This document shows, in pieces, positions 4,332 through 20,200 of a stretch of DNA of 32,000 nt; the first letter of the stretch is position 1; each line of letters begins with the position of its first letter. This DNA is from Candidatus Saccharimonadota bacterium (GTDB lineage: Bacteria; Patescibacteriota; Gracilibacteria; BD1-5; UBA6164). The notes under the pieces are model-generated. The model saw only the letters and a program-made list of their open reading frames with translations. It was not told the origin of the DNA and did not search any database. The stretch lies in the NCBI GenBank assembly GCA_963677765.1, contig OY782392.1, forward strand, positions 90,001-122,000, in the 5' to 3' direction. A program made the translations under genes and the position numbers.

Positions 4332-6183
4332 CTATTTTATTTTTAATTTTTAAATTAAATTTTTCTTCATCAAAATTATCTACATAATTTGTAATAATCA
4401 TTGTATTTTCATCTATCTCATCAAGAATTTCAACTTTTTCTCAATAAATATCTCAAACTTTTAAATCACTGGTATTAATTGATCAACTAGAATAGTAATT
4501 GATTGTTCAAATTCAAGAATTATTTATTTTTATAGAATCAAGAGATATTAATTTATTATCAAGTTGAATAGGAACCTCTATTTCAATAATATTTCAAATA
4601 TAATTAGCTTGATTAGGTAATTTTACCTTTGCAACATATTTAAGATTTTCATCAGCATTTTGAGCTATAGAATAAATACTTCAAGTATAAGTAGTATTAT
4701 CATTTTTGTAATAAACATCTTTTCATTCATAAACATATGATAATTCATCTTTTGTAAAAGAAATATTTATTTCATTATTTGTCTCACTAAGTATTTTAAA
4801 AGATGGAGTTCAAACTCATAATTCTTGTCATTCATCAATCATTATATCAGATATAATTCATGATATTGGTGAAGTTATATTTAACTTATCAGCTTGCTTA
4901 ATTGCTTGAGAGTATGCTATATTTGCATCTTCAACTCTTATTTCAGCATCTTTTATTGAAGTTTGAGAATCTTTTAATCATATTTCTAAATTTCTCAAAG
5001 TTAAATCTCTACTTTTTTTAGCTTCATCTAAAGTAGCCTCCATATTCTCTATTTCTAAATCTAAAGATCTAACATAAATTCATTTATCTTTTTCTAAATT
5101 TTCTATATTTTTTAGTAATGACTGCTCAGTATTTTGATAAGTTTCTAAGAAACTAGATATATTATTTTCCAATCAAATTAATTGAGTTTTATATCAATTA
5201 TAACTAGCTCTAAAACCAGAAACTTTTGCTTTGAATCAATCTATTTCTGCTTTTGATAAAGATCATGCACTTTCTATAGAATTAGATAATGTTTGATCAA
5301 ATTCTCTTAAAAATTCTATTATCAAATCATAAGAAATATTCAATTCATCTAAATATTTTTGATAATCCGTAGAATCGTTAAACTCAACTTCAAGATCATC
5401 AATATAATCTTTTTTTGATATCAAATTTCTTAATAGATTTTCTGTTTTTATTTTTTGTCAAGAATCTTTTGCTCATAAAAATGTTTCAAAAGAATCATTT
5501 TTATTTTTATTTCATGATGTAACTCAAAGTATTTCATCTGAAAAATAAGTTATATCATATAAGAAATCTCTTAAAACAATAAATTCTTTTTCTATATTTT
5601 TTTCAAAAGTAGTTAATGTTTCGTTATTAGATAATAAAAGATTATTATATTCTATTTCTAATTTTGCTAATGAATTTTCAATTTTTTCTAATTCCAAAGA
5701 AGAACTAGAATCTAGATTTTCTACATTTAAGTTTTTAAGGTTTCTTTCTAAATCAGATATTGATTTATCCAAATTTAACTTTGTTGTTTCAAAATTTATT
5801 TCTAATTTTTCATAGTTATTTTTTGCTACTTCTAATGAATTTTCAGCAGAAGCTAGAGCATTTTTTGATGATGCTACATTTAAATAATAATTAGCTATAT
5901 TATCGTCAAGTGTTGCTAATAATTGTCATTTAACAACATTATCTCATTGTTTAACAAAAATATTATTAACTCTTCAGTTAGCATTTGAATTAAGTGAAAT
6001 ATCTTGACTAGAAGATATTATTCATGTTTTTTTCAAAATAGCTTCATTAGATAATTCATTATATCATATAGTTTCAATAAGAAAATCTTTTTTTTCTTGT
6101 TTTTCTTCTACCAACTCATCAGTTCAACATGAATTAAGTAAAAGCATTCAAAATATAGTAAGTAAAATTATTTTTTTATTCAT
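4324..6183 (-). CDS. efflux periplasmic adaptor / membrane-fusion protein (HlyD-like) lipoprotein with very long coiled coil, 619 aa
   Basis: ATG at 6181-6183 (minus) to TAG at 4324-4326, overlapping the RND start by 8 nt (ATGAATAG). The N-terminus MNKKIILLTIFGMLLLNSCGTDE is a signal peptide with a lipobox-like Cys. The lipoyl-like motif is NGRVNNIFVKQGDNVVKGQLLATLDD. Several hundred residues of heptad-like sequence follow. Track ORF 5524-5772 is an in-frame fragment. Confidence 0.85.
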
Positions 6184-6583: not shown

Positions 6584-8308
6584 ATGAGCTGAAATACAAA
6601 GCATACTATTAGAGAAAAAACTCAAGAAAAAATCAAAATAATAGATGAGTTATTAATAGCATGACTTGAATGAATAAAAAAACTATGATCTGAATTCACA
6701 AAAGATAATTTTCATAAAATAAAAAATAAAATTTATTGAAAATATAAGCTTGCAAAACCTATAGCTAGTATAGAGTTAATAGAAAGATATAACGAATTAA
6801 TAGCTACATGAGAATTAGAGGAAGACTTATTATTTAAAAAGATTCTTAGAAAAAGATGAGTTAGAAGTCAATCATGAGTTACAGTTATTTCTCTTCTTAC
6901 AAAATTTTGGTGATGTCCTGGTGAATGTGTATATTGTCCTACTTTTGAATGACTACCAAAATCATATATACCAAATGAACCTGCAGTAATGAGGGCTGAA
7001 TTAAATAAATTTGATCCTATAAAGCAAATACATAATAGATTAAGAGCTTTAGAAGTTACTGGACATAAGATAGAAAAGAATGATGTTAGAATAATTTGAT
7101 GAACTTGGTCTGTATATCCTAAAAAATATCAAGAAGATTTTATTAAATGAATATATGATGCTTTTAATACTTATGATGAAATGAAAGAATTCATAGAAAG
7201 CACTGATTTGTCAACTGATAAATTTGCTAATTTCAAAATAAGAGAAACTTACAAAGCAAAAATAGCTCCAACTTTGGAAGAAGCAAAAAAAAGAAATGAA
7301 AATTCTAGATGTAGAGTAATTTGAGTAGCTATAGAAACAAGGCCTGATTGGATAACTCCAGACGAAATAAAAAGACTTAGATCATACTGAGTTACTAGAG
7401 TTGAGATTTGATATCAAACTACTTTTGATGAAATAAATGAATTAAATAAAAGATGACATTGAAATAAAGAAAGTATAGAAGCAACTAAAATGCTGAAAGA
7501 TGCTTGATTCAAAGTAGTTGCTCATATGATGCCAAATTTATTAGGTTCTACACCTGAAATGGATAAAAAAGCCTTAGCAAGAGTTTTTGATGATCAATCA
7601 TTTAGACCAGATGAATTAAAAATTTACCCTATGGTTGTTACTGATAAATCAGAATTAACAGATATATGGAAAAAATGATGATTCAAAGCCTATGATGATG
7701 AAACATTGATAAACCTTACTGCAGAGTTAGAAGCAATGGTTCCAGAGTATATAAGACTTAACAGAACATATAGAGACATACCAGCAAGTGAAATATTAGA
7801 AGGATCAAAATTAGCTAATCTAAGACAAATAGTCGAAGATAAGCTAAAAAATGAATGAATAAAAATGGTAGATATAAGACATAGAGAAATTAAATTTTGA
7901 AAAAATGATCCTAAAAAAGCTGTATTAAATGATTATAGTTATGAGGCATCTGATTGATATGAACATTTTTTAACTTTTGAAGATCCTGAAGATAGAACTA
8001 TTTTCTCTCTTCTTAGATTAAGACTTGCAAAATGAAATGAAGAAATAAACAAAGCACTACCTGAACTAGAATGAGCTGCATTGATTAGAGAAATACATAC
8101 ATTTGGTGATCAACTAAGTATTTGAGAAAAATGATCAACTTTTTGACAACATCTATGATTTTGAAAAAGATTAATAGCAAAATCTGAAGAACTAGCTATT
8201 GAAGCATGATTCAAAAAAATGGCTGTAATTGCATGAGTTTGAGTTAGAGCATATTATGAAAAAAGATGATATCATTTAGAATGAGAATATATGGTAAAAG
8301 ATTTATAA
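6584..8308 (+). CDS. elp3: Elp3-like radical SAM / GNAT acetyltransferase (tRNA wobble uridine modification enzyme homologue), 574 aa
   Basis: Read with TGA=Gly:
- Radical SAM Cys cluster: RKRGVRSQSGVTVISLLTKFWGCPGECVYCPTFEGLPKSYIPNEPAVMRAE
- RIIGGTWSVYP, CRVIGVAIETRPDWI, LRSYGVTRVEIGYQTTFDEINELNKRGHG, AGFKVVAHMMPNLLGSTPEMD, PEYIRLNRTYRDIPA
- C-terminal GNAT part: REIHTFG...GQHLGFGKRLIAKSEELAIEAGFKKMAVIAGVGVRAYYEKRGY
Stop TAA at 8306-8308. Confidence 0.9.
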
Positions 8309-10473: not shown

Positions 10474-11739
10474 ATGTTGTTCAATAAAAACAAAATAGAA
10501 TTATCAAAAGAAGAAATAATAAATGCAAAAGATTCGTTTTGAGATTTTATTAATGATACTCCTCTAGAAAAATCACAAAGATTGAGTAAAAAATATCAAG
10601 CAAATATATATTTAAAAAGAGAAGATTTACAAGAAGTAAGAAGCTATAAAATAAGATGAGCTTACAATCTAATAAATTCACTAACTCAAAAAGAAAAAGA
10701 TTCAGGTGTTGTTTGTGCTAGTGCATGAAATCATGCTCAATGAGTTGCTATATCATGCTCAAAACTAAAAATAAAAGGTACTATCTTCATGCCAATTACA
10801 ACTCCTGAACAAAAAGTATATAAAACAAAACAATTTTGATGAAAATATGTAGATGTAGTATTAGTATGAGATACTTTTGATCAAGCATTTAAAGCAAGTA
10901 AAGAATTCGAAAAAGAGAAAAAGGCAACTTTTGTTCATCCTTTTGATGATAGAAGAATTATATGTTGACAAGCAACAATATGACTTGAAATTTTTAACCA
11001 ATTACAAGGCATAGAAGCTGATTATATAATAAGTCCTATTTGATGATGATGAGTAATATCTTGATTAATAAATGCTAAAAATGCATTTAATAAAAAAACA
11101 AAAATAATATGAGTTGAGCCTGAATGAGCTCCATCAATGAAGAAATCATTAGAAAAATGAAAAAATACAACATTAGATAAACTAAATATATTTGTAGATG
11201 GTGCCTCAGTTGCTAGAGTTTGAGAGAATACTTTTAATATTGCAAAAAATGAAAAATTAAGAGTAATGACTTCACCAGAAGACAGAGTATGTTCTACTAT
11301 TCTTGAATATTTAAAAGAAGATTGATTAGTTGTGGAACCTGCTTGAGCTTTATCTACAGATATACTAAAAGACTTGAAAGAAGAAATAAAATGAAAAAAT
11401 ATTATCTTAATAATATCTTGATCTAACTTTGACTTTGAAAGACTACAAGAAGTAAAAGAAAGATCTATGAAATACGAATGATTAAAAAGATATTTCTTAG
11501 TTAGTTTCCCTCAAAGACCATGAGCACTAAAAGAATTTCTTAATTGTTTATGACCAAATGATGATATAGCAAGATTTGAATACCTTAAAAAATCAAATAA
11601 AAATAAAGCACCTGTTTTTATTTGAATAGAGACAGATAAAAAATCTAACTGGTCAAAAATAATAAAAAATATGACGGATTTATGATTTAAACATAGAGAT
11701 GTAACTGATGATGATTTATATTTTGATTTATTAGTTTAA
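10474..11739 (+). CDS. ilvA: threonine ammonia-lyase (threonine dehydratase), short form with one ACT-like regulatory domain, 421 aa
   Basis: YLKREDLQEVRSYKIRGAYN contains the PLP lysine motif. Also present are VVCASAGNHAQGVAISC and ISPIGGGGVISG (a tetra-Gly loop encoded as four TGA). The C-terminal part is RYFLVSFPQRPGALKEFL. TAA at 11737-11739. Confidence 0.9.
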
Positions 11740-11781: not shown

Positions 11782-12213
11782 ATGGTTTTAATATTTACAA
11801 ATAAAGACAAAGCCTCTCCCAAAATGGATAACGATGAGTTAAACTCATTGTTTACAGCATCAAAAGCACCATTAGCTATTTGACCTTACAGTAAAGCATA
11901 TAGTGCTTGAGATTTACTATTCTGCTCATGACAAATATGATTAGATGTAAATACTATGCAAATGGTTAAATGATGAATTGAAGAACAAACAAAACAAGTT
12001 TGTAGAAACATAAGTCATTTATTAGAAGAATATTGAACAAGTTTAAAAAATGTAGTAAAAACAACTATTTTTTTAAAAAATATTAATGATTTTGAAGCTG
12101 TTAATAATATATACAAAAATTATTTTGTATTAAAACCAGCAAGATCAACTGTAGAAGTATCAAATCTACCAAAAAATGCACTTATAGAAATAGAAGTAAT
12201 AGCAAAGATATAA
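11782..12213 (+). CDS. ridA: RidA/YjgF-family enamine/imine deaminase
   Basis: [29 protein letters not shown]...[24 protein letters not shown]...[23 protein letters not shown]. The longest ORF starts at 11782 (143 aa). An internal ATG at 11824 would give a more typical 129-aa protein. Confidence 0.88.
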
Positions 12214-14712: not shown

Positions 14713-15510
14713 ATGAAAAAAATTATTATTACTCTAGTATTTCTTATTATATCTATTAATAATACTAATAGTTATTATTTATTAAATAAAAATGATAAGA
14801 TAATAGAAAATAAATTAAGTTATGTTATATCAAAAAATATAGAAAATAAAAATTTAATTTATAGAGATAAATTATCACAAAAATTAGAAAATATAGCATC
14901 TATAAATCAAAAATATTACAAAATAATACAAAATGTAAAAATAAATAATTATTTATATAACTACCTAGATGAACAAAAATCAGAATTAAATAAAATTAAT
15001 ATAGATTATCAAAATATCAAAGACTATTGGATTGAATTACATAATATAGAAAGAGATAAATTAGAACTAAAAAATATTTATTCAAATAAATATCTAGATA
15101 ATACAGCATATCAATGGTCACTAGAACAATATAAAATATGAGAAATGACACATAAAAGAACTAATTCAAATGAAAACTATAATCATAAAGATATAGAAAA
15201 ATGGTTTAAAATTAGATGAATAAATTGTTATAATAAATGATGAGTAAGTGTAAGCGAAAGTATAGCGAAATATAGTTTTTATTGCCAAAATAGTAATTGT
15301 GAGCAAGAACTAAAAAAATCAATGAAAAAAATATTTGATATATATATGTCTGAAAAGTGATTAGATTATCCTATGGATGCACACTATAGAGCTATAATTC
15401 ACCCAAATATTAGTCAAATATGAATTTGAATAAAATTACAAAAAACAAATAATAAAAATTTTTACGAATATTATATAACAAGTCACTATTGTAGTGAGTT
15501 AATAAAATAA
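14713..15510 (+). CDS. secreted CAP/SCP/PR-1-like domain protein (265 aa)
   Basis: The signal peptide is MKKIIITLVFLIISINNTNS. The CAP-like part is WIELHNIERDKLELKNIYSNKYLDNTAYQWSLEQYKIGEMTHKR...SESIAKY...HYRAIIHPNISQIGIGIK...YYITSHYC. Track ORF 14713-15141 is the N-terminal fragment, and the true stop is TAA at 15508-15510. Confidence 0.75.
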
Positions 15511-15550
15511 CTTTACAAATAACAAAAAATTATTAAAGTCTTAGTATATA

Positions 15551-15758
15551 AAAGCGATTGAATGGCTATCAACCATGAGCTGGAGGAAGAAAGGATTAAC
15601 TCTTAGTAGAACCTCTCGAAGTCGAAGTACTTCGTTAAAAAACAAAATAGAGAATAACTTTAGGTGGTAACTCCCCTGTTTAATAAAATCAAGGGGCCGA
15701 AAGTATAAAAAATATATTTCAATATTAAAATGAAATTTATATTTTTTATACTTTTTTT
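15551..15758 (+). promoter_or_regulatory. T-box riboswitch leader, Ile specifier (AUC), terminator/antiterminator type
   Basis: This is the only noncoding stretch clearly richer in G and C than its surroundings.
- T-box sequence: ACUUU-AGGUGGUAA-CUCCCCU (15657-15677)
- Antiterminator: ACUUU (15657-61) pairs with AAAGU (15700-04), and CCCCU (15673-77) pairs with AGGGG (15692-96), leaving a bulge that carries UGGU
- Competing terminator: AAAGUAUAAAAAAUAUA (15700-16) pairs with UAUAUUUUUUAUACUUU (15738-54), followed by a U-run
- F-box-like UCGUUAA (15632-38)
- S-turn-like AGUAGAA bulge (15605-11) in a helix formed by GGAGG-AAGA and UCUU...CCUCU
- Hairpin AUGG-CUAUCAA-CCAU (15562-76), exposing AUC followed by A. 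Confidence 0.8.
15700..15758 (+). terminator. intrinsic terminator of the T-box expression platform
   Basis: A 17-bp perfect stem (15700-15716 with 15738-15754) encloses a nested atttca/tgaaat hairpin. A T-run follows to 15758. Its 5' arm overlaps the 3' arm of the antiterminator. Confidence 0.8.
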
Positions 15759-15777
15759 ATTTATAAATAAAAAGCTT

Positions 15778-15993
15778 ATGAAAACAAAAGATATTATAAA
15801 AAATATGAAAATTTATTTAGAAGAAGATAATTTTGAATCAATAGATGAATTATTACAAGAAATATTTTCTTCAGAATTACAAAAAGAACAAGAAGAAGCT
15901 ATATGAGATTTATTACAAGAAGTTACTCTATATAGTGAACTTAGAGAAGATGAGTATAAAAATGAGGCTCTAAATATAATAAATAATCTATAA
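15778..15993 (+). CDS. hypothetical small acidic helical protein (71 aa)
   Basis: The ATG is 20 nt after the T-box terminator: MKTKDIIKNMKIYLEEDNFESIDELLQEIFSSELQKEQEEAIGDLLQEV...LNIINNL. TAA at 15991-15993. Confidence 0.65.
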
Positions 15994-16000
15994 AAAATGA
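15973..16000 (+). repeat. direct repeat copy 1 at a gene junction (aatataataaataatctataaaaaa + ATGA)
   Basis: About 25 nt are identical to 16339-16363. The repeat covers the last codons (NIINNL), the stop and the next start codon. Confidence 0.85.
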
Positions 16001-16359
16001 AAAAACAATTAGATCAAGTATTAGAATTTCATAAAAAGTTTAAAGCATTAATTAATAATGAACCTAGTAATATAAGTGAGGATAGGTATTATCTTAGATA
16101 TAAATTAATGAAAGAAGAGATTGAAGAATACTTAATTTGAGCAAAAAATTGAGATAAAGAAAATATTGCAAAAGAATTATCAGATATTTTATACTCTGTA
16201 TATTGAACAATAATAGAACATTGATTACAAGAAAAAATAGAAGAATGTTTTAACGAAGTTCATAAAAGTAATATGAGTAAAGATTATTCTTCAACTAAAA
16301 TGATAAAATGAAAAAATTATTTTAAAGCTGATTTAAGCAATATAATAAATAATCTATAA
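15997..16359 (+). CDS. MazG-like all-alpha nucleoside triphosphate pyrophosphohydrolase (120 aa)
   Basis: The EXXE...EXXD metal-binding signature is present in LMKEEIEEYLIGAKNGDKENIAKELSDILYSVYGTIIEHG. It is followed by FNEVHKSNMSK, which is typical of the small MazG/YpjD-like family. The gap to the upstream gene is 3 nt. Confidence 0.75.
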
Positions 16360-16367
16360 AAAAATGA
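16339..16367 (+). repeat. direct repeat copy 2 at the next gene junction
   Basis: Same sequence as 15973-16000 with one extra A in the A-run. It again spans NIINNL, the stop and the next ATG. Confidence 0.85.
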
Positions 16368-16933
16368 TTACAGAAATAGAAAAAAAATATGCTTTCAATA
16401 AAGATGATTATCAAAAAATAGTTGATAATTGTAATTTTGAATGAGAAATAAATATAAAAGATTATTATTTAGATAATAGTGATTATGTACTATTTAAAAA
16501 TAAATATTATTTAAGACTTAGAGATGGTATTTATGAACTCAAAATAGCCAAAGTAGATAAAGAAAATTGATTAGTTACATCAAAAGAAATAATTTGAGAT
16601 GAAGAAATTGATCAAATCTTACAAGAAAACTTTTGAATAAGTATTGATGAAACTATTTGAGTAGTATTTGTTGAAACAAATAGAGAAAAATACTCTTATG
16701 AAATAGATTGAATTAAACTAAATATAGACATAGATAGCTTTCAATATTGAAAAAGATATGAAATAGAAGTAATATCTAACTCAAAAAAAGAGGAAGAAAT
16801 TAATGACATAATAGAAAAATTTAGAGATAAACTATGACTTTTTAGTAGTTATGATGAAAGCTCTTGAAAAATAATGGTATGTGCAAGAAACCAAAATATT
16901 GAAATATATGAAATAATGAACAATCAAATTTAA
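16364..16933 (+). CDS. CYTH-domain protein (triphosphate tunnel metalloenzyme; CyaB/ThTPase-like), 189 aa
   Basis: The N-terminal ExExK signature is in MITEIEKKYAF. It is followed by YYLRLRDGIYELKIAK, REKYSYEIDGIKLNIDIDSFQYGKRYEIEVI. TAA at 16931-16933. Confidence 0.78.
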
Positions 16934-16950
16934 TTTATAAAAAAGAAAAT

Positions 16951-17214
16951 ATGGAATGATATATACAAAGTCTTTTAGATAATCCAAGCAAAGAAAATTT
17001 AAATAGAGTAGATTATGAAATAAAAAGAACGAAAGATATAATAGATAGTTATTTTGAATCTATAAATTATATTTTAGCCTTATGATGAGAAGAGTCAGAA
17101 CATAAAGAAGAAATAGAAAGAATACAGAAAATAATAGATAATGAAAAAGAATTTTTAGAACATTGTAGAAAAGTATCAAAAGATATAGAAGAAGTTTTAA
17201 AAGAAAAAAATTAA
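16951..17214 (+). CDS. hypothetical small helical protein (87 aa)
   Basis: MEGYIQSLLDNPSKENLNRVDYEIKRTKDIIDSYFESINYILALGGEESEHKEEIERIQKIIDNEKEFLEHCRKVSKDIEEVLKEKN. It starts 17 nt after the CYTH gene. Confidence 0.6.
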
Positions 17215-17273
17215 AGTCCGTAATGACTTATTAAACTATAAATAAATATTTAATAATTAATTATACAAACAAA

Positions 17274-20200
17274 ATGTGTGATTGTAATAATAAAAAATAT
17301 CCTGAAGTAAATCCAAAACAATCATTTCCTCACTTAGAAGAAGAAATATTAAAATTTTGGAAAGAAAATTCTATATTTGAAAAATCTATAGAAAATAGAG
17401 AATGAAATGAAGAATTCAATTTTTATGATGGTCCTCCATTTGCTACTTGAACACCTCACTACTGACATATATTAGCTGGTACTATAAAAGATGTAATACC
17501 TAGATACCAAACAATGGCTGGTAAAAAAGTAGAAAGAAAATTCGGTTGGGATACTCACTGATTACCAATTGAAAATATAGTAGAAAAAAAATTAGAAATC
17601 TCATGAAAAGATGATATAGAAAATAGAGTATGAGTTTATGAATTCAATGAAGAATGTAGAAGAAATGTTTTTTGATATGTTGAAGAATGGAAAAAAACAG
17701 TTGATAGAATGGGTAGATGGGTTGATATGGAAAACTCATACAAAACTATGGATAGTGATTTTATGGAATCTGTATGGTGGGTTTATAAATCATTATATGA
17801 TAAAGGTTTGGTTTATGAAGGTCATAGAGTAGTACCATATTGTCCTAGATGTGCAACTCCTTTATCAAACTTTGAAGTAAATCAATGATATAAAGACAAA
17901 CAAGATAAAACAGTTACAGTAAAATTCAAAGTAAAAGGAAGTGAAAGTAAATATATACTTGCTTGGACAACTACTCCTTGGACATTAGTAGCTAATCTTG
18001 GTCTAGCAGTATGAGTAGACTTAGATTATGTAGAACTACTTGATTCAAAAACTAAAGAAACATATGTATTAGCTAAGGATAGAATATCTTCATACTATAA
18101 AAATGAAGAAGATTATAAAATAATTAGAGAATATAAAGGTGCTTGTTTAGTTTGAATTAAATACGAAGCAATTTTTGATGATTTTTGGATTTTAAATGAA
18201 GCTAATGATATGCCATTATGAATGGAATTATGAGAAAATGCATATTCTGTTATAAAAGGTCATCATGTAACAACAGAATCAGGTACAGGTATTGTACATA
18301 TAGCACCTGCTTACTGAGAAGATGATAATCTAATAGGTAAAGAAGAAAAACTTGGTTATGTTGCTCATATTGCCGATAATGGTAATACTGAAAATTTATT
18401 AAATGATAATGGTATTCAAGTATTTGAATACAACGAATTAGCAATTCAAAAATTAAAAGAAAAAAATGCTACAGTATTAATAAATACTTATGATCACTCA
18501 TACCCTCATTGTTGGAGATGTGATACTCCTCTTATATATAGAGCGATTTCAGCTTGGTATGTAGCAGTAGAAAAAATAAGAGATAGAATGGTAGAAAGTA
18601 ACCAAAATATAAATTGGGTACCTGAAGAAATAAAAAATGGTAGAATGTGAAAATGGTTAGAATGAGCAAAAGATTGGAATATTTCTAGAAATAGATATTG
18701 GGGTTCAGCTATACCAGTATGGCAATCTGAAGACAAATCAGAAGAAGTATGTGTATGAAGTATAAAAGAATTATATGAATTAAATAAAGACTTCTGACAA
18801 ATCGAAGAAAAAGATGGTAAATACTATTATACTGAAACAGGTAATGAAGTAGATTTACATAAACACTTTGTAGATGATATAAAAGTAAAAAATCCAAAAA
18901 CTTGAAATACTCTAACAAGAATACCTGAAGTATTAGACTGTTGGTTTGAAAGTGGAGCAATGCCTTATGCAAGTAAACACTTCCCTTTTGAATGACAAGA
19001 AGATTTCAAATTTCCAGCTGACTTTATTGCTGAATGATTAGATCAAACTAGATGATGGTTTTATACTCTTATAATTTTATGAGTAGCATTATACGATGTA
19101 GCTCCAATGAAAAATGTAATTGTAAATGGTATAGTATTAGCTGAAGATGGACATAAAATGTCAAAATCAAAGAAAAACTACCCAGATCCACAATTAATTT
19201 TTGATAAATATTGAGCTGATGCAATGAGATTTTATTTAATGAACTCTCCAGTAGTAGAAGCTCAAGACTTAAGATTTATGGAGTCATGAGTAGAAGAAGT
19301 AGTTAAAAAAGTAATACTACCTTTATGGAATACTTATTATTTCTTCACTACATATGCTAACATTGATGAATTTAAATCAAAATGATTACCAGAAAAATTA
19401 GATAACAATCTAGATAAATGGCTGATTTCTGAATTAAATGAATTATCATATGAAGTTGGTAAATGATTTGAAGAATACAAATTAAACAATGCAGCAAAAC
19501 CAATAGTAAAATTTATGGATAATCTTACTAACTGGTATATTAGAAGATCTAGAAAAAGATTTTGGAAAACTGAAAATGATGGTGATAAAATTCAAGCATA
19601 TGAAACTCTTTACTATACATTAGTAGAAGTTACAAAAATTATAGCTCCATTTATGCCATTTGTAAGTGATTATATATATAAAAACTTAACTAATGATGTA
19701 TCTGTTCATTTAACAGATTTCCCTAAATATGATTCTAATTTGATTGATGAAAAATTAAATAATGAAACTGATTTAGCTCAAAAAGTAATTACTCTATGAT
19801 TAGCTTTCAGAGCAAATGCTAAAATAAGAGTAAGACAACCTCTTACATCAATTACAATTACTTCAGAACTTGATGAATATTATAAAGATATTATAAAAGA
19901 AGAATTAAATGTAAAAAATGTATTAGTTGTAGATGGTAGCACACTTGCTCAAAAAATATGTAAACCAAATGGTAGAGCTATAGGTCCAAAATTTGGTAAA
20001 GATGTAAAGTTTATAATGAGTGAAGCTAAGGCTTGAAACTTTGAAGAATTAGAAAATGGAAATATTAAGGTTTGAGAATTTAAATTAGAACAATGAGATT
20101 TTGAACTAGTATATCAAGCATGAGATTCTTCATTAGAAATTGAATCATGATTTGGTATGGTTATATCAATGGATACTAATATAACAGAAGAATTAAAAAA

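Follow-up and report, generated by a model that had tools for sequence, protein, structure and literature searches.

The window analyzed here (32,000 nucleotides (nt), positions 90,001 to 122,000 of contig OY782392.1, from a bacterium catalogued as Candidatus Saccharimonadota) carries at 15551-15762, on the plus strand, what is very probably a T-box leader, specific for isoleucine and of reduced architecture, heading an operon that ends with ileS, the gene for isoleucyl-tRNA synthetase (IleRS). Homologous leaders share its structure, retain without exception the isoleucine codon AUC and the UGGU of the T-box bulge, are followed by a conserved terminator, and are associated with isoleucine genes. 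The leader is a variant of the known T-box type with a short Stem I, in which a short decoder is joined to a terminator instead of a translational platform. Its features suggest that it binds tRNA-Ile, senses its aminoacylation, decides between termination and readthrough, and is co-transcribed with ileS. A broader proposal, to which we give slightly better than even chances, is that all over the Gracilibacteria the charging of tRNA-Ile is read co-transcriptionally by a T-box of about 125-155 nt, which is devoid of an elbow platform, mostly lacks Stem III and, in some species, IIA/B as well, and captures the tRNA via the anticodon-loop-like heptaloop C-U-AUC-A-A, in a loop-loop contact that is reinforced by the S-turn of Stem II.

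The window leader was used as nhmmer query against 80 ileS loci retrieved with the window IleRS. The top genomes in this set, up to 88% identical, are annotated as Candidatus Gracilibacteria, in agreement with an earlier sequence-only reading of the window, which had placed it in an SR1/Gracilibacteria-type genome. The search returned 45 matches. All are homologous leaders, reside in 44 Gracilibacteria ileS loci, and lie upstream of ileS and on the same strand; spirochaete ileS loci, present among the same 80, gave no match by nhmmer. The lineages hosting the leader have IleRS sequences about 48-88% identical. With the window, the family includes 46 genome-derived copies; six metagenome-derived copies, described below, bring it to 52, hence 51 besides the window. 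A MAFFT alignment of 28 leaders, together with the proposed structure, served to build a covariance model, called R1. R1 recovers 46 full-length copies, window included, at 76-155 bits. When run without filters on the 32-kb window, it scores the leader at 145 bits and the runner-up at 13.8 bits, and detects no further T-box copy, such as one ahead of ilvA at 10474. A weak R1 match in one relative (L026, 3264-3398, 21.7 bits; relatives are designated by locus number) falls within a coding region, and was discarded.

Substitutions in the family follow the proposed helices. In the raw MAFFT alignment 88.3% of the cells are paired, versus no more than 53% with slid partners, and 20 of the 33 pairs change on both sides. 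In the model-guided alignment of the 46 copies, 92.1% of the cells are paired and 29 of the 33 pairs show compensatory changes; these values are reached by none of 500 shuffles, and slid controls do not exceed 50%. Compensatory pairs occur throughout the structure, in the Stem I hairpin (4/4, with 99.5% of the cells paired in the model-guided alignment), the basal helix (2/3), the base of Stem II (5/5), IIA (4/5), A1 (6/7) and A2 (5/5). The covariation among homologous leaders to which the sequence-only reading had entrusted its helices is thus found. RNAalifold, with no structure supplied, arrives at Stem I, the two parts of Stem II, IIA and A2; it puts an alternative in place of A1, for which there is no compensatory support. 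Folding of the single sequence misses the T-box fold; the z score is -2.1 if the terminator is included and +0.7 if it is left out, the latter not significant. Since the single-sequence fold is uninformative, the support for the leader is comparative, not thermodynamic.

All the sequence features listed in the earlier reading were found in place by direct check of the window. Several of them are hallmarks of the family. AAGAA and [A/U]NUAGA[A/C] are kept in 46 of 46 copies, UAGA being invariant. The AGUAGAA string had been called S-turn-like; it is a conserved module of Stem II, hence more than a likeness, and is predicted to form an S-turn in three dimensions. GGUGGUA is invariant, and the bulge reads UGGUA[A/C]C in 46 of 46 copies. 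The unpaired U which follows the 7-nt bulge is nearly invariant in the family, at a site where canonical leaders begin A2 with a G-U pair. A CGU[U/A]A motif accompanies the IIA hairpin. Insertions of variable length, which distinguish one relative from another, are located in hairpin loops. Insertions of 50-110 nt reside in apical Stem II of L008 (8093-8299), L009 (6851-7052), L005 (1197-1463), L038 (1573-1809) and L147 (3255-3484); others are found in helix A2 of L052, L045 and L005. From their location, the scaffold tolerates extra RNA in apical Stem II and in A2.

Two sequence signals bear on the specificity of the leader. AUC is found in the apical loop of all genome-derived (46/46) and metagenome-derived (6/6) copies, and the base that follows is A in 44 of the 46 genome-derived ones. 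The loop reads CUAUCAA in 30 of 46 copies. Its length is 7 nt in some 40 of the 46, with the layout pyrimidine-U-AUC-A-N, like a tRNA anticodon loop, and 6 nt in five, as in Nocardia farcinica. Stem I is throughout a hairpin of 4-6 bp with a loop of 6-7 nt. The suggestion of an isoleucine T-box displaying AUC in a terminal hairpin loop, and of a Stem I devoid of the long platform, fits all copies; the AUC hairpin, whose lack of conservation would have spoken against the whole idea, is conserved in the comparative alignment. UGGU, placed by the same reading in the bulge of a two-helix antiterminator, is found there in 52 of 52 copies. Bacterial tRNA-Ile generally has the anticodon GAU and the discriminator base A73. 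We assume both for the tRNA-Ile concerned here; AUC would then fit the former and UGGU the latter.

The genes downstream point to isoleucine as well. The ileS start directly adjoins the leader in L025, L011 and L128; in the other loci the two are separated by 0.3-7.3 kb of small genes in the same orientation. In L046 a leader lies directly 5' of ilvA (Pfam PALP plus Thr_dehydrat_C), which is followed by ridA, and in L052 a homologous 415-amino acid (aa) ilvA-like open reading frame (ORF) directly follows the leader. Copies precede both ileS and ilvA-ridA, hence the same AUC element serves two isoleucine gene sets. Loci fetched by ileS could bias this association. Metagenomes were therefore scanned with the T-box core motif CTTTAGGTGGNAMCTT alone, ileS not being used. 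Among the 120 matches listed, at least six are true members of the family, all with AUC and UGGU, and ileS is found downstream, on the same strand, in the five of five having enough flanking DNA. The remaining 114 of the 120 listed are chance matches, mostly in coding DNA.

Two AUC T-box copies reside on one contig in L046, at 4945-5095 and 7552-7704. One precedes ilvA-ridA; the other precedes, further upstream of ileS, a 256-aa ORF whose N-terminal segment is hydrophobic and which finds no match in Pfam. The window hosts a homologue of threonine dehydratase (IlvA) at 10474-11736 (+) and, after it, a RidA-like gene at 11782-12210, with no T-box copy upstream of the two. The regulon thus differs between lineages, since ilvA-ridA has a leader in L046 and none in the window.

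The 3' part of the leader has the organization of a transcriptional switch. In 46 of 46 genome-derived copies a hairpin starts within the 3' strand of A1 and extends to a U-run; in the window, 17 of 17 pairs of its stem are canonical. The proposal of a terminator overlapping A1 is therefore borne out by the family. The basal pairs of the hairpin covary: pair 1 is U-A in 13 copies and C-G in 30, pair 3 U-A in 24 and C-G in 14. The calculated energy of the antiterminator is -10.3 kcal/mol, versus -15.7 kcal/mol for the terminator, or -22.8 kcal/mol if A2 is kept; these values fall in the range reported for T-boxes in TBDB. A terminator scan found nothing at the leader, because at least three G-C pairs are demanded. 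A custom scan found no other hairpin plus U-run in the 15400-17300 interval, which is consistent with a single transcript running from the leader through to ileS at 17274.

The mechanism that we propose follows from these elements. The anticodon of uncharged tRNA-Ile(GAU) would pair with AUC, which a short Stem I, resting on a K-turn, shows in its 7-nt apical loop, and the S-turn purines of Stem II (AAGAA/AGUAGAA) would dock on the codon-anticodon helix, as in the solved ileS T-box of Nocardia farcinica. The tRNA, with its free 3' ACCA end, could then pair with UGGU in the antiterminator bulge, and stabilize helix A1. As long as A1 is held, the 17-bp A/U-rich terminator would be unable to form at its base, and polymerase would read into the small ORFs and ileS. 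Charged tRNA-Ile would be unable to stabilize A1; the more stable terminator would form, and transcription would stop at the U-run.

The closest known relatives of the leader are Class III T-boxes, in which Stem I is short and devoid of elbow platform, the Specifier lies in an apical loop of 5-6 nt, and Stem II is required (PMC10482949). As in the actinobacterial Class III ileS leaders of N. farcinica and Mycobacterium tuberculosis, AUC followed by A is shown in an apical loop, the base of Stem I would have a K-turn and the platform is missing; UGGU in the discriminator bulge and ileS as target are also shared. The Stem II strings AAGAA and AGUAGAA are identical to those of N. farcinica. Stem I of the N. 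farcinica T99 RNA reads GGC-GAC-GA-UCCGG-CCAUCA-CCGGG-GA-GCC (Supplementary Table 2, PMC10651847), and continues as UUCGG-AAGAA...AGUAGAA-CCGAA, then CGGG-UGAGC-CCCG-UCACA-GCUC (PMC10651847). In the same order of modules, the window reads AGC-GAUU-GA-AUGG-CUAUCAA-CCAU-GA-GCU, then GGAGG-AAGAA...AGUAGAA-CCUCU. A sequence-only profile of the Gracilibacteria leaders does not score the N. farcinica RNA significantly (-0.8 bits), because the former are very A/U-rich; the comparison rests on order and identity of the motifs. Differences are also marked. The platform is a terminator with a U-run, and not a Shine-Dalgarno sequestrator; the loop mostly measures 7 nt, versus the 5-6 nt described; the IIB pairing of N. 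farcinica (GAGC/GCUC) has no detectable counterpart; neither the window nor most relatives have a Stem III; the hosts are Gracilibacteria, and not Actinobacteria.

Other features recall Class I T-boxes, described by the Rfam model RF00230 and exemplified by Bacillus subtilis tyrS. An antiterminator with a 7-nt bulge of the UGGN-ACC type is opposed to a downstream terminator, and the K-turn base, the S-turn GAA/AGUA, the F-box CGUUA, the purine string preceding the antiterminator and the aminoacyl-tRNA synthetase target are all shared. In contrast to Class I, the entire upper Stem I is gone, the window lacks Stem III, an unpaired U15672 replaces the conserved G-U pair that opens A2, and the terminator overlaps A1 only. 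Class II glyQS leaders similarly are naturally reduced T-boxes that work by transcription termination; however, they kept the long Stem I with its elbow platform and dropped Stem II, whereas here the platform was dropped and Stem II kept.

Several observations weigh against the interpretation of the leader as a working T-box. RF00230, whose gathering threshold is 93 bits, gives no match in the window, either at threshold or at E<=10 (451-nt search), and none in the relatives L025 and L076. The lack of such a match had been named by the sequence-only reading as sufficient to reject the T-box. We judge this criterion too strict, because the model was built on leaders with a long Stem I. Of the three relatives tested, L037 is matched below threshold (23.5 bits, E 0.0017, 271-nt search): model positions 1-219 are aligned, the 7-nt loop stands in for 78 positions of Stem I, and the K-turn base, the GAA/AGUA S-turn, CGUUA, AAGU-Stem III-AAA and GGUGGUACC are all in register. 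A long Stem I with internal Specifier Loop, AG bulge and distal-loop platform is absent in all copies. No Stem III is found in the window, where the linker 15638-15656 is devoid of self-complementarity, and no consistent loop-to-tail pairing corresponding to the IIB pseudoknot emerged in the 40 copies searched. The terminator shares with the A1 3' strand only 5 nt, 15700-15704, and A2 survives in both conformers, leaving A1 alone to compete with the terminator; the competition is thus narrower than in textbook T-boxes. No tRNA-Ile gene was detected by ARAGORN in the window or in 200 loci. Finally, ileS lies 1.5 kb 3' of the leader, beyond four small ORFs. The missing Stem III had escaped the earlier reading; the undetected IIB pairing and the distance from ileS refine it further.

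The missing modules deserve comment. Stem III is viewed as part of the discriminator core that senses aminoacylation, and co-transcriptional T-boxes are argued to need the Stem I elbow platform for fast capture of the tRNA; a short Stem I would be tolerated because translational switches are free from the time limit set by polymerase (PMC7583486). In the family, Stem III is missing in about 39 of the 46 genome-derived copies, in which the flanking purines AAGUA remain. Eight relatives, six genome-derived and two metagenome-derived, carry a Stem III hairpin in the linker, among which L005, L023, L025, L037 and L076, and the metagenomic L105 and L128. The Stem IIA hairpin and the F-box are absent in L011, L012, L013, L014, L051 and L088, where Stem II runs into the purine linker. 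Before the terminator, the leaders of this IIA-less sub-lineage span about 125-140 nt, and the shortest of the family measure about 125 nt.

The losses prompt the question whether the leader still listens to tRNA at all. A degenerate T-box could fold and terminate as a constitutive attenuator, or act as an element of mRNA stability, tRNA sensing having been lost; neither Stem III nor the Stem I platform nor a IIB pairing was found, each of them being regarded as functionally important, and the Rfam model fails on the window. We hold such decay very improbable, because the AUC, UGGU and S-turn strings are invariant at about 48-88% IleRS identity while the helices around them change by compensation, and because the element has been recruited to a second isoleucine gene set, ilvA-ridA. 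A translational T-box, in which the 15700-15754 hairpin would sequester the ribosome-binding region of the first ORF, appears very improbable. Precedent speaks for it, since the decoding architecture of Classes III and IV is said to 'mostly regulate translation initiation' (PMC10482949; PMC7583486). Yet a U-run follows the hairpin in 46 of 46 copies, the start codon at 15778 is unpaired, 24 nt past the stem, and no Shine-Dalgarno-like motif is available to be sequestered. GGA, GGAG, GAGG or AGGA are not found within 20 nt upstream of the start in any of the 23 window genes, the ORF at 15778 included, and the regions upstream of the 23 starts are almost pure A/T, as expected from the notion, put forward earlier, that the genome mostly lacks Shine-Dalgarno sequences.

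That the element is no T-box, but some other structured RNA or a small ORF, is scarcely credible. A minus-strand ORF of 71 codons does occupy 15544-15756 under code 25, and weak Rfam matches were found to the pan (20 bits) and preQ1 (16.5 bits) models. However, substitutions keep base pairs and not codons, hairpin loops accommodate the insertions of variable length, and RF00230 aligns full length with the homologue in L037; the pan and preQ1 scores are far under the thresholds of 36.2 and 39 (E ~0.5-0.8, 451-nt search). These matches, and that to RefA9, are below threshold and judged due to chance; the preQ1-like match is made of the IIA hairpin and the A-rich tail. A tRNA-responsive, terminator-based T-box thus remains the reading that we favor, and the coordinates of its elements, and of the genes downstream, are given in the table.

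Table. Elements of the putative T-box leader and genes downstream (window coordinates).
Feature	Position	Strand	Sequence or remarks
Promoter-like site (weak candidate)	15512-15539	+	TTTACA, 16 nt spacer, TAAAGT; consensus scan
Stem I	15553-15581	+	covariation, RNAalifold de novo, N. farcinica-like element order
Stem I basal helix	15553-15555 / 15579-15581	+	AGC / GCU, 3 bp
K-turn-like internal loop	15556-15561 / 15577-15578	+	GAUU+GA (UGA 15559-15561) opposite GA
Stem I hairpin	15562-15565 / 15573-15576	+	AUGG / CCAU, 4 bp; apical loop CUAUCAA 15566-15572
Specifier	15568-15570	+	AUC, Ile codon, complementary to anticodon GAU; then A15571
Stem II	15582-15616	+	base helix GGAGG 15582-15586 / CCUCU 15612-15616
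Stem II S-turn strands (predicted)	15587-15591 / 15605-15611	+	AAGAA opposite AGUAGAA; short variable apical helix above
Stem IIA hairpin	15617-15637	+	CGAAG(U) 15617-15622 / (A)CUUCG 15629-15634
F-box-like motif	15633-15637	+	CGUUA, at Stem IIA end
Purine-rich linker	15638-15656	+	AAAAAACAAAAUAGAGAAU; no Stem III; relatives conserve AAAAU.AAGUA
Antiterminator	15657-15704	+	-10.3 kcal/mol
Helix A1	15657-15664 / 15697-15704	+	ACUUU(A)GG with CC(G)AAAGU
A1 5' strand end plus T-box bulge	15662-15671	+	AGGUGGUAAC
T-box bulge	15665-15671	+	UGGUAAC, between A1 and A2; then extra unpaired U15672
Helix A2	15673-15677 / 15692-15696	+	CCCCU / AGGGG
Intrinsic terminator (predicted)	15700-15762	+	17-bp stem 15700-15716 / 15738-15754, 17/17 pairs canonical
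Terminator inner helix	15717-15721 / 15731-15735	+	
U-run	15752-15762	+	U-rich 15755-15762 beyond stem
71-aa acidic ORF	15778-15993	+	code 25 translation; no Pfam match
PRA-PH/MazG-like gene	15997-16359	+	code 25 translation, Pfam
CYTH-domain gene	16364-16933	+	code 25 translation, Pfam
87-aa ORF	16951-17214	+	code 25 translation
ileS, isoleucyl-tRNA synthetase, 1054 aa	17274-20438	+	HIGH-type (HYGH) and KMSKS motifs

The promoter-like site would set the transcript start at about 15546-15550, just 5' of Stem I; such sites are no commoner in the window than in shuffled sequence. A K-turn plausibly shapes the base of Stem I, where GA is opposed to GA or AA in the various copies. The G+C content of the window is 22.8%, and the longest ORF measures 186 aa by translation table 11 versus 1078 aa by tables 4 and 25. 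From this difference, the window is protein-coding only if TGA is a sense codon.

Among the genes that follow the leader, ileS would be the main target; it shows 60-88% identity to the ileS of those Gracilibacteria loci in which the leader is likewise found upstream. Homologues of the acidic ORF, 71-77 aa in length, are found in about 20 loci (for example L068, 7595-7828), and represent the commonest first gene after the leader; the acidic protein is apparently co-regulated with IleRS. The leader-ileS gap hosts in different genomes nucleotide 'house-cleaning' enzymes, either PRA-PH/MazG-like, CYTH, NUDIX or NTPase_I-T (ITPase-like), as in the window (15997-16933, plus strand), in L018 (5816-6274) and in L029 (354-890). 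In several Gracilibacteria, ileS contains an insertion, about 0.6 kb long and located past residue ~703 of the window IleRS numbering (L180, 3698-4293; L167, 2674-3206; also L033-L038, L057, L065 and L068). The ileS match extends for 3.7-3.9 kb where the insertion is present, versus 3.16 kb; an intein, an intron or an additional domain may account for the extra DNA.

Among the papers searched, none was found to connect T-boxes with Gracilibacteria, Patescibacteria or the candidate phyla radiation. In TBDB, the short-Stem-I model was run only on Actinobacteria and on sequences that RF00230 had already caught. Short-Stem-I leaders with a terminator may have precedents, given that the class definition calls them 'mostly' translational. 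The family described here joins a short decoder to a conserved terminator in about 50 species, contrary to the long Stem I that reviews expect. If the leaders work as proposed, kinetic control based on termination would require neither a Stem I platform nor a Stem III, and those of Gracilibacteria would be among the smallest natural T-boxes known. They would provide a natural test of the kinetic and structural rules of T-boxes, and a compact scaffold for structural work or engineering. They would also extend T-boxes to the candidate phyla radiation, where the standard Rfam model missed them; the covariance model R1 is ready for annotating such leaders. If the leader works as we suppose, bacteria with reduced genomes would have kept feedback control of IleRS.

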